In this document: piece after piece, positions 23,589-60,690 of the stretch
Layout: each line of letters starts with the position of its first letter
How positions within the stretch are numbered: position 1 is the stretch's first letter
Origin: Acidobacteriota bacterium
GTDB lineage: Bacteria > Acidobacteriota > UBA6911 > RPQK01 > JAJDTT01
Assembly: GCA_965217775.1 (NCBI GenBank)
Contig: CBDCJH010000002.1
Coordinates: 5,280,001 to 5,344,000, forward strand
Length of the DNA: 64,000 bases
Direction of reading: 5' to 3'
Notes under the pieces: generated by a model
The model's database searches: none
Seen by the model: only the letters and a program-made list of their open reading frames with translations
What the model was told of the DNA's origin: nothing
Position numbers and translations under genes: made by a program

Positions 23589-24254
23589 TTACGGCGACGC
23601 CTCGTCCGCCAGATTCTGCATCCGCCGAAACGTCTCGCTCGGAGAGGGCGTTCCGAAGATGGCCGAACCGGCCACCAGAATCTCTGCACCGGCCCGGACC
23701 GCATCCTGTGTATTGGCGGGTCCGATGCCGCCGTCGACTTCGATCTTGACCCGGAGATTGTCCCGGGCCGCCATCGCTTTCAATTTTCTCATTTTGTCGA
23801 AGCTCGTGGCAATGAAACGCTGGCCCGAAAAACCTGGATTCACCGACATGATCATGACGTGGTGGCACTTGGGGAGGATCTCCTCCAGGACTCCGACCGG
23901 CGTGTGCGGGTTCAGGGCCACGCCCGGTTTGGCCCCCTTTTCCCGGATCCTGTCCATTAGACGGTCCAAATGCAGAACTGTTTCATATTGGACGCTCAGA
24001 TAGTCCGATCCCGCGTCGATGAAAGCGTCCGCCATCTCTTCGGGGTTGGAGATCATGAGGTGGACATCCAGGACCATGTCGGTCTGCTTGCGCACCGCCT
24101 CGATCACCGGCAGACCGAAGCTCAGGTTGGGGACGAAATGTCCATCCATGACGTCCAAATGCAGGATCCGGGCTCCTGCCTGCTCCATTTCCCTGACGGA
24201 ACCTCCCAGGTCGAGAAAGTCGGCCGAGAGTAGAGACGGGGCGATCCAAGGCAT
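23589..24254 (-). CDS. rpe: Ribulose-phosphate 3-epimerase
   Basis: IAPSLLSADF, HLDVMDGHFVPN, MSVNPGF, EVDGG. Confidence 0.97.
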   Translation of the reverse strand: MPWIAPSLLSADFLDLGGSVREMEQAGARILHLDVMDGHFVPNLSFGLPVIEAVRKQTDMVLDVHLMISNPEEMADAFIDAGSDYLSVQYETVLHLDRLMDRIREKGAKPGVALNPHTPVGVLEEILPKCHHVMIMSVNPGFSGQRFIATSFDKMRKLKAMAARDNLRVKIEVDGGIGPANTQDAVRAGAEILVAGSAIFGTPSPSETFRRMQNLADEASP

Positions 24255-25012
24255 CAGCTGGCGACCTCCAGAATGATGGTGTCGTTTTCCTTCAACATGT
24301 TTCCCGGCCCGGGGTATTGGCGGACCACCCTGCCCCGAGTCCTCCTGGCCCCTCTGGTGTAATTGACCTGTGGTGACTCGAAGCCGTTCTCCCGAATGAG
24401 GGCCCGGACCCGGTTCAGATCCAAATCCCTGAAATCAGGCATGATGTAGCGTTGGACCCGCTTCTTGCCCACCAGGACGTCGACCCGGGCCGTGAGAACT
24501 TCCGTGGACCCCGGACCAGGGACTTGACGGATGATCTGGTCCGACTCCGCGTCGGCAAGGAAGATCTCGCTGGTGTGTCCTATCTCGTAACCGGACTGTT
24601 GTGTGACCAGGCGAGCGACCCGCTGTGTGGACCCGATAAGAACGGGGACGGGATTGTGTTGCACTCCCAGGCTCACCATCACCTGGACTCGCCCGTTGGC
24701 CTTGATGCGGACGCCTGGAGTGGGAATCTGAGAGACGACGGCACCGTTGGGAATCGACGCGTCGTAGACTTCTCCCGCCACCGCCATCCCCAGGCCGACC
24801 GCTTCGAGTTTCTTGTTTGCCTGTTCCATGTCGACTCGGATGACAGACGGGACCACGACCTCCGTCGCCCGGGTCGCCATGCGCATGCTGATGTTCAGGC
24901 TCAGCAGGAAGACGACCATCAGGACGCCGGCCAACAGGCCCAGCTTGACCACTGAAATAAACGGATTGCGCCGTTTCCCCGAACCCTTCTTCCTACGTCT
25001 CTTGGAGCCCAT
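24254..25012 (-). CDS. Membrane-anchored PASTA-domain protein
   Basis: Basic N-terminus, one TM helix, three PASTA repeats (VPSVI...VVSQIP; VPVLIG...IIRQVP; MPDFRD...VVRQYP). Confidence 0.85.
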   Translation of the reverse strand: MGSKRRRKKGSGKRRNPFISVVKLGLLAGVLMVVFLLSLNISMRMATRATEVVVPSVIRVDMEQANKKLEAVGLGMAVAGEVYDASIPNGAVVSQIPTPGVRIKANGRVQVMVSLGVQHNPVPVLIGSTQRVARLVTQQSGYEIGHTSEIFLADAESDQIIRQVPGPGSTEVLTARVDVLVGKKRVQRYIMPDFRDLDLNRVRALIRENGFESPQVNYTRGARRTRGRVVRQYPGPGNMLKENDTIILEVAS

Positions 25013-25086
25013 GCCCGATCTTTGCCTGTGGAGCAAACACGCTACCATACCGTCAGGGGCGACTCCAAGCGTTGGGAGCGGCGACT

Positions 25087-27003
25087 GTGCGCCAGGCTAA
25101 CTGGCACAAGATAGGCGGTGGAAGTCCGCCGAAACGAAGGACTAACCATCCACGTTTCTCCGCGAGCCGTGCGTGGGCACCCGTGAGGGTGTCGGCGAAG
25201 CGTCGGTAGCGGTGCGTATGGGCAGGCTATTGAGCATCGAAAGCTCCATGATCGGAAGTGCCGAGGCTGTAGTCGCGGTCGAAGGCAACACCGGCTGGAC
25301 CGCCCAGGTGAGGGCCGGCCGGGCTCCGCGGTGTCAAAGAACCCAGGCACGTACGCAAATCTTGTTCCGGGACCTGGGAGGGCTTCATTTCACGCCGGGG
25401 GGTCGCCCCGGGGTCGCATGAGAAAGGAGTAACCCGAAACTCATGATGGACGGAACGAAGCAATCGGATTCATCCATAGTAGCGATGAAGCGGGCGAACA
25501 AAGAGGGGCGACCCTCGGCGGAGCCGGTGGAGCGAAGGGATGGAACCAAGGGGAATTCGGTGAGCCAAAGCACGCGCCGGACGCAGAGTCGGGGGAGCGT
25601 GTCCCAAGCGGTGGACCGGATACGGCGAGCGATCGCGAGAAACCCCAAGGAGCGACTGACCGCGCTGCTGCACCATATCACTGTGGAGGCCCTGCGCCGC
25701 TCCTACCTCGGACTGAGGAAGGATGCTGCGCCGGGAATCGATGGGGTACGGTGGGAGGAGTACGGGGCGAAGCTGGAAGAGCGACTGCTGGACCTGCATC
25801 GCCGCGTGCACCGGGGCGCGTACCGAGCGCCTCCCGTCCGGCGGGTGAACATCCCCAAGCCGGATGGAAGGACACGACCGCTCGGCGTGGCCGCGCTGGA
25901 GGACAAGATCCTCCAGAAGGCAGTCGTGGACGAGCTCCTGACGCCGATTTACGAGGCGGAGTTTCTCGGGCTCAGCTACGGGTTCCGGCCCGGACGGAAG
26001 GCGCATGACGCGCTGGATGCACTGGCCTACGGGATCGAACGGCGGAAAGTCAATTGGATCGTGGACGCGGACATTTGGACGTTCTTTGATGCGATCGACC
26101 GGGACTGCCTGATGCAGTTCGTGGAACGGCGGATCGGAGACCGGCGGGTGCTGCGGCTGCTGCGCAAGTGGCTGAACGCCGGGGTGATGGAAGAAGGGAC
26201 CTGGTCGGACACGGGGAGAGGGACGCCTCAGGGCGCCAACGTCTCGCCGGTCATGGCCAACGTGTACCTGCACTACGTGCTGGACCAATGGTTCCATCGG
26301 ACGTGGCGCCCACGAGTCCCCAATGGCGAAGCGATCCTGGTGCGATATGCGGACGACTTCGTGGCCGGATTCCAGAGACGGGCGGACGCGAAACGGTTTC
26401 TCCGAGACCTGGGGGAACGGTGCGCCGAGTTCGGGCTGGAACTGCACCCGGAAAAGACGCGACTGGTGGAGTTCGGACGATTTGCGGCAGCGGATCGGCG
26501 ACGACGCGGGGAGCGGAAACCGGAGACGTTCGACTTTCTGGGGTTCACGCACTACTGTGCGAAGACCCGGAAGGGACGGTTCCGGCTGGGGCGGAAGCCA
26601 AGCGCGAAACGGATGAACCGGACCCTGCAACGGGTGGGGGAGAGGCTGTGGAGACAACGGCACGCGGATCACTGGGAGGTCGGGAAATGGTTGAGCCGGG
26701 TCCTGAACGGCTGGCTGAACTATTTTGCGGTTCCGGGGAGTACGCGCTGGCTGCGAGGTTTCTGCTATCTGCTGCAACGGCGGTGGCTGCGAGCCTTGCG
26801 CCGCCGGTCCCAACGCGACCGCTTCAGCTGGGGACGGTTGCGACGGATGACGGAATTGCTCTGGCCATCCGTGAAGATCCGTCACCCGTGGCCGGGGCAG
26901 CGGTTCCGCTGGCCGTCCACACCCAAGGTAGGAGCCGGATGCCTTAACGGGCACGTCCGGATCTGTGCGGGGGGCGGCAGGAAACTGCCGTTCCTACCGT
27001 GAC
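25087..27003 (+). mobile_element. Group II intron (IIB-type RNA, probably bacterial class E), full length
   Basis: 5' GTGCG at 25087. Domain V GAGCCGGATGC...GCACGTCCGGATC at 26932-26963 with an AGC triad. Domain VI with bulged A at 26996; 3' AC at 27002-27003. EBS1 and EBS2 match the 5' flank. Confidence 0.93.
25443..27002 (+). CDS. ltrA: Group II intron reverse transcriptase/maturase (no endonuclease domain)
   Basis: APGIDG, IPKPDGRTRPLG, SYGFRPGR, GTPQG, RYADDF, FDFLGFTH, GWLNYF, RHPWP. Confidence 0.95.
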   Translation: MMDGTKQSDSSIVAMKRANKEGRPSAEPVERRDGTKGNSVSQSTRRTQSRGSVSQAVDRIRRAIARNPKERLTALLHHITVEALRRSYLGLRKDAAPGIDGVRWEEYGAKLEERLLDLHRRVHRGAYRAPPVRRVNIPKPDGRTRPLGVAALEDKILQKAVVDELLTPIYEAEFLGLSYGFRPGRKAHDALDALAYGIERRKVNWIVDADIWTFFDAIDRDCLMQFVERRIGDRRVLRLLRKWLNAGVMEEGTWSDTGRGTPQGANVSPVMANVYLHYVLDQWFHRTWRPRVPNGEAILVRYADDFVAGFQRRADAKRFLRDLGERCAEFGLELHPEKTRLVEFGRFAAADRRRRGERKPETFDFLGFTHYCAKTRKGRFRLGRKPSAKRMNRTLQRVGERLWRQRHADHWEVGKWLSRVLNGWLNYFAVPGSTRWLRGFCYLLQRRWLRALRRRSQRDRFSWGRLRRMTELLWPSVKIRHPWPGQRFRWPSTPKVGAGCLNGHVRICAGGGRKLPFLP

Positions 27004-27029
27004 TTCTTGTCGCCGAACTCCAGAGTAAC

Positions 27030-27061
27030 GAGCGTGTGAGCGTGTGAGGATGTGAGCGTGG
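27030..27061. repeat. Short tandem repeat (GAGCGTGT) x ~4
   Basis: gagcgtgt gagcgtgt gaggatgt gagcgtgg, between the intron end and the rsmB stop. Confidence 0.6.
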
Positions 27062-27073
27062 AAGCGGCCGTCT

Positions 27074-28384
27074 TCAACCCCCGGTCCCGGGAGGCGTGGG
27101 GGAACTGGGAGTCCCCCCTCCCTTCCGGACCAGACACGCGGCGAAGAACGCCTCGCGCTTCAGGAAATCCTCCCCCGGCTGCCGCAGCAACTTGGCCTCC
27201 GGTTCCACGTCGAGCAGTTCCTCAACCACCCCAAGGTTCTCCTCCGGTTCCGTGGAACAGGTGGCGTAGATCATCTGCCCCCCGGGACGCAGCATTCGAA
27301 AACTGCTCCGCAAAAGGGAACGCTGAATCCGGGCCATTCGTTGGACGTCCTCCTCGGCAAGCCGCCACCGAATGTCCGGGTTGGCCCTCAAGGTGGCGGT
27401 CCCGGTGCAGGGGACATCCAACAGGATGAAGTCGAAGCGGTTCCGGAAAGGGGGGTGGACCAGATCGGCCTGCACGGCCCGGAGTTGCGGGATCCGGTAG
27501 AGGTCGGCTCTGGCTCTCATCTGACGAAGGCGGGACCAGCTGAGGTCACAACTGACAATACGGGAATCGGATCGTTTGCGGGCCTGAAGAATGAACGATT
27601 TCCCCCCGGGAGCCGCGCAGAAATCGCCCAGCACCCGGCACCGGCTGAGGTCGCCGAGGTGAGCGACTGCCTGACTGGCCGGACTCATCAGGAAGCAGTG
27701 ACCTCGACGGTAGAGGGGATGCCTGACGAATGACCTGGAGTTCACTCTGACGCAATGGGGAAGGCGGGGATGAAGTTGAAAGGGGACTCCTTCCCGGTCC
27801 AGCCGCCGGCAGAATTGCTCTCGCGTCGTACGGAATGGATTGACCCAGAGATGCAGCAGCGGCGGGCGGTTGTTTCTCTCCAGGATCGTCTGCGTTCCCT
27901 CGTGGCCGTATCTTGTGAGGTACCGGCGCACAAGCCATTCGGGGTGACTGAAACGGATGGACAGACTCCGGGTGTCGTCCGCTTCCGGAGCAGTGGTCCG
28001 TTTCCGGAGGAAACGACGGAGGACGGCGTTGACCAGGGGTCCGGCGGAGGATTTTCGGAATTCCCTGCAGAGCCGGACCGACTCGTGAACCGCGGCGCGC
28101 TCCGGAATCCTCAGGTAATTGAGTTGAAACAGGCCCACACGCAGGATCTGGAGCACTTCCGGATCCAAGCGGGACCGGGGACGCTCCAACAAAGAATCCA
28201 GTTGATAGTCCAGGAGGGAGCGGTTTCGAAGGACGCCGTAGGCCAGTTCCGTCGCCAGTCGTCTGTCTCGCTCCGGCAGAGAGTCGAAATCGGAGGTTTC
28301 GAAATGGGTTTCCAGGGAGACCCGCCGGCCGCTTTCACTGTCCAGGAGCACCCGCAGGGCCACGGACCTGGCCGTGCGCTTCAC
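27074..28384 (-). CDS. rsmB: 16S rRNA m5C967 methyltransferase
   Basis: NusB-like N-terminus, SHPEWL, DFCAAPGGKS, DVPCTGT, YATCS. Confidence 0.92.
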   Translation of the reverse strand: MKRTARSVALRVLLDSESGRRVSLETHFETSDFDSLPERDRRLATELAYGVLRNRSLLDYQLDSLLERPRSRLDPEVLQILRVGLFQLNYLRIPERAAVHESVRLCREFRKSSAGPLVNAVLRRFLRKRTTAPEADDTRSLSIRFSHPEWLVRRYLTRYGHEGTQTILERNNRPPLLHLWVNPFRTTREQFCRRLDREGVPFQLHPRLPHCVRVNSRSFVRHPLYRRGHCFLMSPASQAVAHLGDLSRCRVLGDFCAAPGGKSFILQARKRSDSRIVSCDLSWSRLRQMRARADLYRIPQLRAVQADLVHPPFRNRFDFILLDVPCTGTATLRANPDIRWRLAEEDVQRMARIQRSLLRSSFRMLRPGGQMIYATCSTEPEENLGVVEELLDVEPEAKLLRQPGEDFLKREAFFAACLVRKGGGTPSSPTPPGTGG

Positions 28385-39049: not shown

Positions 39050-39073
39050 GGAGCGGCGGCTTTCCAGCCGCCG
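39050..39073 (+). repeat. GGAG-tagged palindrome (same family as the intron target)
   Basis: GGAG CGGCGGC TTTCCA GCCGCCG, compared with the rejoined intron flanks GGAG CGGCGAC TTTCTT GTCGCCG. Confidence 0.7.
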
Positions 39074-60535: not shown

Positions 60536-60558
60536 GGAGGGGGACATTCTTGTCCCCC
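60536..60558 (+). repeat. GGAG-tagged palindrome or terminator-like hairpin
   Basis: GGAG GGGGAC ATTCTT GTCCCC followed by a T-rich tail; same layout as the intron-target palindrome. Confidence 0.45.
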
Positions 60559-60690
60559 ACTCTTTTTCTCCGCGTTTCATTGTAATTTCGGGAGCTAATA
60601 CACCACCGCTCCCGGACAACCCCTCCCTATCTTCCCGGATCGCGCCGGCCCGTGGCAGGTGGAGAAGTTACTTGGAAACTACAAACTGAG

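Follow-up and report, generated by a model that had tools for sequence, protein, structure and literature searches.

How does a group II intron find sites at which it can multiply when its protein has no endonuclease domain, and what marks those sites? This question is raised by a complete intron in a 64,000-nucleotide stretch of an Acidobacteriota genome (G000:C2:5280001-5344000, hereafter the window), the source genome G000 having 6.43 Mb and 62% GC. The intron lies in the loop of a short tagged palindrome, and we put at roughly 0.85 the probability that it is an autonomous, endonuclease-less, IIB-like element whose homing site is an intergenic palindrome of the repetitive extragenic palindromic (REP) type, read by guide sequences in domain 1 (D1) of the intron RNA. 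Other genomes (G004-G010) were used for comparison, the close relatives being Acidobacteriota metagenome-assembled genomes.

An intron in the loop of a tagged palindrome

The intron occupies 1917 nt of the plus strand (25087..27003; GUGCG...GAC), with GTGCG at its start (25087) and GAC at its end (27003), which fits the 5' GUGYG / 3' AY rule of group II introns. Its boundaries are supported independently by the ten full-length copies in the genome (98.8-100% identical end to end), all of which align exactly from base 1 to base 1917 in BLAST, and it is matched by the RNA families RF02005 and RF00029. Read together, the 5' and 3' flanks form a stem of 7 bp with a loop of 6 nt: the left arm CGGCGAC (25079..25085, plus strand) is complementary to 27009-27015, and the remaining loop bases TTCTT and the right arm GTCGCCG follow the intron (27004..27015, plus strand).

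Two intron-binding sites (IBS) of the 5' exon coincide with parts of this repeat. IBS2 (GGAGC, 25075..25079, plus strand) consists of the GGAG tag of the REP and one further base, and its partner is exon-binding site (EBS) 2, GCUCC, in an internal loop of D1 (25243..25247, plus strand). This assignment draws on the sequence itself, on the conservation of the tag among seed repeats, on the RF02005 alignment and on the EBS2 alleles found elsewhere (GCTCC, CCTAC/CCTAT and CATGC). IBS1 (GCGACT, 25081..25086, plus strand) comprises the last five bases of the left arm and the first loop base, the 5' splice and insertion site following 25086, and pairs with EBS1 (AGUCGC, 25271..25276, plus strand) in a terminal hairpin loop of D1, as indicated by RF02005 and by covariation. 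A third contact, EBS3, is assigned by covariation to the A at 25336 (plus strand; intron position 250), its partner IBS3 being the T at 27004 (plus strand), the first base of the 3' exon. The RNA is thus predicted to read twelve target positions, which lie in the tag, at five of the seven bases of the left arm and at the start of the loop (two bases). The intron boundaries and the coordinates of IBS1, IBS2, EBS1 and EBS2 in the initial annotation were all correct on re-reading of the sequence.

The palindrome is a multi-copy REP-like family

The palindrome represents a true REP-like family, being short, GC-rich, mostly extragenic and present in more than 100 copies. Chance would yield 0.002 copies of the motif GGCGRCTTTCTTGYCGCC and 0.07 of the motif of the initial annotation, GGAGCGGCGRCTTTC; the genome contains 109 and 61, respectively. 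The GGAG head is conserved at G87 G87 A91 G78 % among 123 seed repeats, and 701 GGAG tetramers are followed by a perfect hairpin, versus 149-413 for ten control tetramers. With the introns removed in silico, 545 sites match the pattern GGAG-NN-G[CT]G[AG][CT]T, which spans IBS2 and IBS1, 341 of them as hairpins and 204 without one. The claim that the palindrome is multi-copy genome-wide is therefore borne out by the strict copies, by the tagged hairpins and by the hairpin sites matching IBS2-IBS1 alike. According to crude, GC3-based gene calls covering 77.7% of the contig, 51 of the 341 hairpin sites lie inside genes versus 142 of the 204 non-hairpin matches. At 212 of the 290 extragenic hairpin sites the tagged strand runs in the same direction as the upstream gene, so that many REPs would be transcribed as 3' untranslated regions.

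As DNA, natural unoccupied REPs form hairpins with folding energies of -9.4 to -13.6 kcal/mol (z about -3.5). The two unoccupied relatives that had been listed for the window are both present: one of the same family with GGCGGC/GCCGCC arms (39050..39073, plus strand; -13.4 kcal/mol, z -3.55) and one of the GGGGGACA subfamily (60536..60559, plus strand; -9.4 kcal/mol). Genome-wide, many REPs are followed by a G-rich motif, ACCAGGGGGG-TTA-GGGGGG, and REPs are also arranged in direct tandem, repeating every 28 nt or so (e.g. G010:C15:19534-19803, 10 units).

Classical REPs carry a conserved tetranucleotide head, GTAG, 5' of the palindrome. A second family with this head is present in the genome, comprising 172 tagged hairpins in total, its commonest variants having 26, 16 and 9 copies. 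Moreover, two RAYT-like genes (L032, G000:C2:5635223-5635945; L033, 4665591-4666268) match NF047646, the model for the REP-associated tyrosine transposase (RAYT), at 70.5 and 78.2 bits, slightly under the cut-off of 80; both carry the HUH motif (PNHVHVL) and a GGAG-tagged hairpin adjoins each, the flanks of one of them containing hairpins in which a clear inverted REP pair was not seen. These similarities suggest the presence of a REP/RAYT system in Acidobacteriota.

Guides and targets covary across the genus

In addition to the ten full-length copies, BLAST identified in G000 one 3' fragment and one 67-nt 5' fragment, and there are four derivatives without the open reading frame (ORF), 642-755 nt long, which retain intron positions 1-551 and about 1822-1917. 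Of the ten full-length and four ORF-less elements, 13 interrupt a tagged palindrome within its loop, all at the identical position. Twelve are of the GGAG type, with GGAG(or GGAC)-N-arm-T before the intron and T..-arm after it; the single GTAG-type site reads GTAG-GGGCACCC before the intron and CTTGT-GGGTGCCC after it. Under a strict test, a perfect hairpin of at least 5 bp is formed at 11 of the 14 sites, and two more have one arm mismatch. Several occupied REPs are chimeric, with a left arm GGCGAC opposite a right arm GCCGCC, which may reflect recombination between intron copies.

The comparison was extended to 49 elements from seven genomes of one genus, 44 of them with both flanks known; because at most the best 17 candidates per genome were taken, the element counts in the relatives are at least those given. 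Excluded from this set were the 5'-disrupted L004, the 3' fragments L028 and G000 3646257-3645111, a 97-nt internal fragment in G008, and 5' fragments of 52-78 nt (G000 3009757-3009691, L072, L062, L049, L042 and L050). Among the 44 fully flanked elements, 33 lie in perfect hairpins of at least 5 bp, seven in imperfect ones and four in non-palindromic sites.

The elements fall into eight EBS1/EBS2 allele classes, with EBS1 reading AGTCGC, AGTCCC, AATCGC, AACCCC, GGGTGC, GGTCGC, GGGCGC or GGATGC. The allele classes form on average 10.33 of 11 possible pairs with their own 5' exons, and when the eight classes are permuted, the identity alone of the 40320 arrangements reaches the observed fit, which upholds the EBS/IBS pairing proposed in the initial annotation. 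Each of the three EBS2 alleles matches its own IBS2. A clear example is the G000 element at 3224157 (82% identical, ORF-less), whose EBS1 GGGTGC and EBS2 CCTAC are both complementary to its 5' exon GTAGG-G-GCACCC, so that both guides have changed to fit a different repeat. In a group-wise screen of 41 elements, intron position 250 (25336) and the first base of the 3' exon combine as A/T in 34 cases, G/C in four and T/A in three. Such Watson-Crick covariation in three states identifies EBS3-IBS3, a pairing of the IIB/IIC type, and all three contacts, i.e., EBS2-IBS2, the 6-nt EBS1-IBS1 and EBS3-IBS3 (rather than delta-delta'), covary.

Occupancy follows pairing strength. Hairpin REPs of G000 whose IBS1 ends in CT are occupied in 8 of 112 cases, as opposed to 1 of 229 for those ending in TT (Fisher p 7e-4), which require a G-U pair with the guide.

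Guide alleles and host repeats

Guide allele use appears to follow the dominant REP subfamily of each host. In G000, TTTCTT-loop GGCGRC REPs number 109 and GGGGGGAC-type REPs four, and the EBS1 alleles are AGTCGC (13) and GGGTGC (1), with no AGTCCC; in G005 the repeats number 61 and 15, with AGTCGC (8) and AGTCCC (1). G008 has no TTTCTT-loop GGCGRC REPs and 286 of the GGGGGGAC type; its alleles are AGTCCC (6), AATCGC (4), AACCCC (1) and GGTCGC (1), with no AGTCGC, and the AATCGC allele fits a GCGATT subfamily with 55 copies in that genome. In G009, finally, 170 and nine repeats accompany AGTCGC (6) and GGGTGC (1). As these genomes are kin, the pattern is suggestive and not a statistical proof.

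Among 41 genomes sampled, the strict REP motif was found in eight of the nine genomes of the window's genus and the intron D1 likewise in eight of nine; the 32 genomes searched outside this genus yielded neither. G004 contains the repeats without an intron match. Some of the public runs holding the intron sequence are labelled 'sponge metagenome', a mere hint of habitat.

Intron orientation follows the direction of replication

The cumulative GC skew of G000 has its minimum at 5,012,567, matching dnaA at 5,010,750, and its maximum at 1,698,110. Relative to these points, the sense strand is the leading-strand sequence in 14 of 15 copies (the 3' fragment included), which implies insertion into the lagging-strand template. 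The same rule is obeyed by 10/10 copies in G005, 12/13 in G008, 4/4 in G007, 8/8 in G009 and 2/2 in G006, so that over the six closed chromosomes 50 of 52 copies have their sense strand on the lagging-strand template. This tally takes in fragments of G000, G008, G009 and G006, with the exception of the 67-nt G000 fragment, which obeys the rule too. Candidate REP hairpin sites in G000 are evenly split between the strands (173 vs 168), and the bias is therefore not inherited from the repeats. It is as expected for endonuclease-less introns primed at the replication fork, of which it would be an unusually clean genomic signature.

Mini-introns and recent activity

The ORF is intact in nine of the ten full-length copies, with 0-8 amino-acid differences, which, together with the 98.8-100% identity of the copies, points to recent activity of the intron and, indirectly, to its splicing and retromobility. 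In the ORF-less derivatives of about 643 nt, which are found in the same sites, the ribozyme is retained together with the first 195 nt of the ORF. Most elements of G008 and G009 are such mini-introns, 640-648 nt long, in REP loops. The minis of G009 include two subfamilies, each with three copies (99.7-100% identity), and no reverse transcriptase (RT) more than 37% identical to that of the window intron was found in this genome. In G008, five minis are 99-100% identical mutually, and minis average merely 88% identity to the sole full-length copy. Mobilisation of ORF-less bacterial introns in trans is known in principle, and these patterns suggest it here.

Three further observations concern individual copies and contigs of RNA libraries. 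At G000:C2:4407265-4405417, two mini-introns 1.2 kb apart share an identical 3' flank, probably through tandem duplication or recombination between copies. The mini-intron at G000:C2:1903834-1904588 has its domain 1 enlarged by an AT-rich insertion of some 110 nt and stands in the same flanks in G010 (L048), and is therefore an old, inherited copy. In contigs of two RNA libraries, the summed depth of the 5' ribozyme part (25085-25375) is far higher than that of the ORF part (25376-26927), at 1700-2300 vs 2-170 in run X17; this would fit abundant mini-introns or a stable ribozyme RNA, neither of which contigs can establish.

Proposed explanation and its alternatives

We propose that the GGAG(N) tag is read by EBS2, the final five left-arm bases and loop base one by EBS1, and loop base two by EBS3, all through base pairing, and that the intron RNA would reverse-splice between these two loop bases. 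The protein cannot cut the second strand, and cDNA synthesis would then probably be primed by the nascent lagging strand at the fork, as the strand bias indicates. Since the REPs exist in hundreds of mostly extragenic copies, insertions would be tolerated and the intron could multiply, and we infer, with the initial annotation, that the repeats act as a neutral safe harbour, a notion supported by their extragenic location. Guide variants would have arisen that fit other REP subfamilies, including the second, GTAG-tagged family, such that the introns of each genome fit its commonest repeats, and the ORF-less derivatives of about 643 nt would presumably be mobilised in trans. Whether the lineage is best regarded as a hyperparasite of the REP/RAYT system, with guides that mutate to follow the abundant subfamily as REP subfamilies expand and turn over in each species, and minis forming a third parasitic layer that proliferates even without a cognate autonomous copy (G009), is a question on which we consider the odds to be even.

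Several observations weigh against programmed homing into REPs. Four elements occupy non-palindromic sites. One is the 14th element of G000 (3931636), whose 5' exon GGAG-AT-GCGGCT serves a gene as ribosome-binding site and start codon, the intron being sense-oriented; the others are three 88%-identical copies in G007 (L010-L012), with EBS1 GGATGC and EBS2 CATGC at the non-palindromic site GCATG-G-GCATCT, close to the 5' end of a tyrosine-recombinase gene present in multiple copies. The flanks of the three G007 copies are identical, so that the host element is itself mobile and multi-copy. Distant relatives (50-57% amino-acid identity) also lie in unrelated sites. The expectation that copies and relatives share one kind of site thus holds for 13 of 14 elements in G000 and 40 of 44 in the genus, and fails for these four and for the distant relatives. 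IBS1, moreover, is buried in a stable stem (DNA hairpins of -9.4 to -13.6 kcal/mol), and perfect hairpins are not significantly more often occupied than non-hairpin pattern matches (9/341 vs 3/204, p 0.55), a comparison confounded by selection against genic insertions, 142 of the 204 non-hairpin matches being inside genes. The element L040 in G006 pairs poorly with its flanks (3+3 pairs; boundary uncertain), and two copies violate the strand rule, namely G000 1903834+ (the old insertion-bearing mini, near the terminus) and G008 5329808-. In the relatives, the strand counts take dnaA as the origin and assume the terminus at its antipode, and the genomes of one genus are non-independent samples. 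Finally, no contig joins 25086 to 27004 in four of 24 public runs (those of two RNA-library studies and two other runs holding the intron sequence), so that neither spliced RNA nor an empty allele was seen, contigs being unable to show transcription, splicing or absence; the 3' flank 27025-27500 is uncovered in the contigs of both RNA runs.

The non-palindromic sites have matching IBS sequences, which indicates that the site is set by base pairing and not by the palindrome as such; together, the G007 exceptions and the unrelated sites of the relatives mark the palindrome as the current programmed target of this sub-lineage and not as a fixed trait of the wider clade. They bear equally on the idea that the hairpin or cruciform is itself required, as a terminator stem is for IIC introns, base pairing alone being insufficient for efficient insertion. 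Such a requirement would account for the location of 40 of the 44 fully flanked elements in palindromes and for the occupation of only one clearly ectopic site in G000, against some 164 matches to the 12-nt pattern that we estimate would arise by chance, given the base composition (204 non-hairpin matches were counted), and it would suit an RT whose closest solved relatives are of IIC type. Yet the insertion point lies inside the loop, and a hairpin whose left arm is IBS1 would, once folded, compete with the guide and hide its target; sites without a palindrome are also used, and occupancy does not differ significantly between hairpins and other matches, though selection against genic insertion blurs that comparison. 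The hairpin is thus probably not recognised as a structure, and we regard a structural requirement as unlikely.

It is also conceivable that the intron inserts broadly and survives only in harmless repeats, the REP association resulting from selection and not from programming. Some survivorship bias must exist, as REPs are extragenic, but selection alone would not place every insertion at the same loop phosphodiester on the same repeat strand, nor would it give EBS1, EBS2 and EBS3 their complementarity to the repeat or their covariation with it across eight allele classes; occupancy, furthermore, tracks pairing strength among equally extragenic repeats. We hold this explanation to be very improbable. 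Finally, the intron could be carried by a larger, composite mobile element of which the arms are the terminal inverted repeats, and not a pre-existing target, which would explain why the arms always flank the intron. Against this stand hundreds of uninterrupted hairpins without an intron, as well as the repeats of G004, which has no intron match; the introns are 99% identical throughout, yet the arms beside them differ between sites by compensatory changes, and the RAYT-like genes would offer an independent route for the spread of the repeats. This possibility seems to us close to negligible. Programmed homing into the REP loop, in turn, would explain how an endonuclease-less intron reaches 10 to 14 copies per genome without gene disruption.

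Ribozyme, protein and neighbouring genes

The ribozyme is compact, with about 340 nt ahead of the ORF, about 75 nt in domains 5 and 6 (D5/D6) and a stem-loop after EBS1. The D1 core (25121..25343, plus strand) matches RF02005 (group-II-D1D4-6) over model positions 1-225 of 225 with 166.4 bits (gathering score 49, E 3e-48), with EBS1 falling in a terminal and EBS2 in an internal loop of the alignment. The full-length RF00029 model (D5/D6) is covered by 26930-27003 at 37.5 bits, slightly below its gathering score of 40 (E 3e-5). Based on this alignment, D5 (26932..26963, plus strand) has 32 nt and an AGC triad and, with the aid of the fold, D6 (26967..27000, plus strand) contains a bulged branch-point A at 26996, 7 nt upstream of the 3' end of the intron. 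The G of the triad (26934) stands opposite A instead of the usual U, a pair that cmscan marks as non-standard, and the D5 loop is of the UUAAC type and not GNRA.

The encoded RT/maturase of 519 aa (25443..27002, plus strand) matches TIGR04416 (group II RT/maturase) with 352.6 bits against a cut-off of 300. Pfam yields RVT_1 only, just 64 aa extend beyond the maturase match, and an endonuclease (HNH) domain was not found in the protein, in agreement with the initial annotation of the intron as endonuclease-less. In the sub-lineage of the window, the ORF continues across D5 and D6 (26931-27002), which its final 24 or so codons overlap, and stops 1 nt ahead of the 3' splice site. Read-through of D5/D6 was ruled out as a conserved feature, the frame of the relatives stopping 56-73 nt or more before the intron end, and the overlap looks incidental.

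The intron is antisense to both neighbouring genes, which encode a PASTA-domain protein (24254..25048, minus strand) and an rsmB-like 16S rRNA methyltransferase (27074..28384, minus strand). The spacer between them, which holds the REP and the intron, measures 108 nt when the intron is discounted. Elsewhere, a short metagenomic contig (L017 1375-1976) contains a second group II intron with another D1 type (RF01999), directly downstream of a related RT gene.

Intron class and comparison with known systems

The intron is best described as IIB-like, by features and not by phylogenetic assignment. The initial annotation had associated EBS-IBS pairing with IIB introns, and the EBS2, 6-nt EBS1 and EBS3 pairings, expected of the endonuclease-less, IIB-like classes D, E and F, favour this up to the designation 'IIB-like'; the nearest solved RTs are of IIC type (7uim, 162.6 bits; 6ar1, 158.8 bits), with T.el4h at 108 bits. 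RmInt1, of class D, is likewise endonuclease-less and IIB-like, with a target set by EBS1/2/3 and a bias toward the lagging-strand template, and related introns retarget by EBS changes. Its homing site lies in the multi-copy insertion sequence ISRm2011-2. The two introns thus share a multi-copy genomic harbour, which for RmInt1 is an insertion sequence and for the window intron a 25-nt REP hairpin in hundreds of copies. RmInt1 of Sinorhizobium meliloti and its relatives are treated in PMC4615759 and PMC5894124.

IIC introns insert after a stem, have a short IBS1 and lack EBS2 (PMC4424553, PMC1702495). In common with the window intron, IIC and IIC-attC introns are endonuclease-less, exploit abundant intergenic inverted repeats (terminators, attC) as multi-copy sites and rely on host replication for priming. 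Unlike them, the window intron inserts in the loop and not downstream of the stem-loop, has a 6-nt IBS1 in the stem and a covarying 5-nt EBS2 that reads the repeat tag, and carries a D5 AGC triad.

REPs are specific insertion targets of ISPpu9, ISPpu10, ISPa11, ISPsy8 and IS1397 (Tobes and Pareja 2006, PMC1525189); like the window intron these are mobile and exploit REPs, but they are DNA transposons with protein recognition. In P. putida KT2440, a group II intron lies beside REPs in two of nine copies (22%) (PMC1525189), a loose association which is not analysed there as RNA-guided homing, in contrast with the case described here. In halophiles, IIB introns lie beside attC; the one full-length and two truncated introns described share no conserved exon sequence (Sonbol and Siam 2021, PMC7923331). 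That study states that upstream structures had no reported role for IIB introns, and its authors speculate that structure plays a part. Those introns are of IIB type, endonuclease-less and located at structured repeats; the window intron differs in that the repeat sequence itself is the IBS, with covariation. The IIE/IIF ribozymes, for which EBS2 has been suggested to matter for retrohoming rather than splicing (Nagy et al. 2013, PMC3753933), resemble it in being small and IIB-like; their D1 contains both EBS1 and EBS2, and EBS1 is followed on its 3' side by a stem-loop. The compactness of the window intron's ribozyme, its EBS2 in an internal loop and its 32-nt D5 with a non-GNRA loop likewise recall the IIB-like classes of that paper, a likeness of features and not of phylogeny.

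The literature searched, with most subscription journals and supplements outside its scope, contained no description of a group II intron homing into a REP by base pairing. The mechanism itself is ordinary retrohoming; what is new is the REP harbour, the covariation series and the tracking of the host's repeats. The eight guide alleles matched to their targets, including EBS3, constitute a natural covariation series that could inform targetron design, and two kinds of selfish DNA, REP/RAYT repeats and retroelements, would be linked in a little-studied phylum. A 2015 review names homing sites, terminator motifs and attC sites as the target specificities of bacterial group II introns (PMC4424553); base-pair-guided homing into a genome-wide REP would add a fourth lifestyle beside these three.

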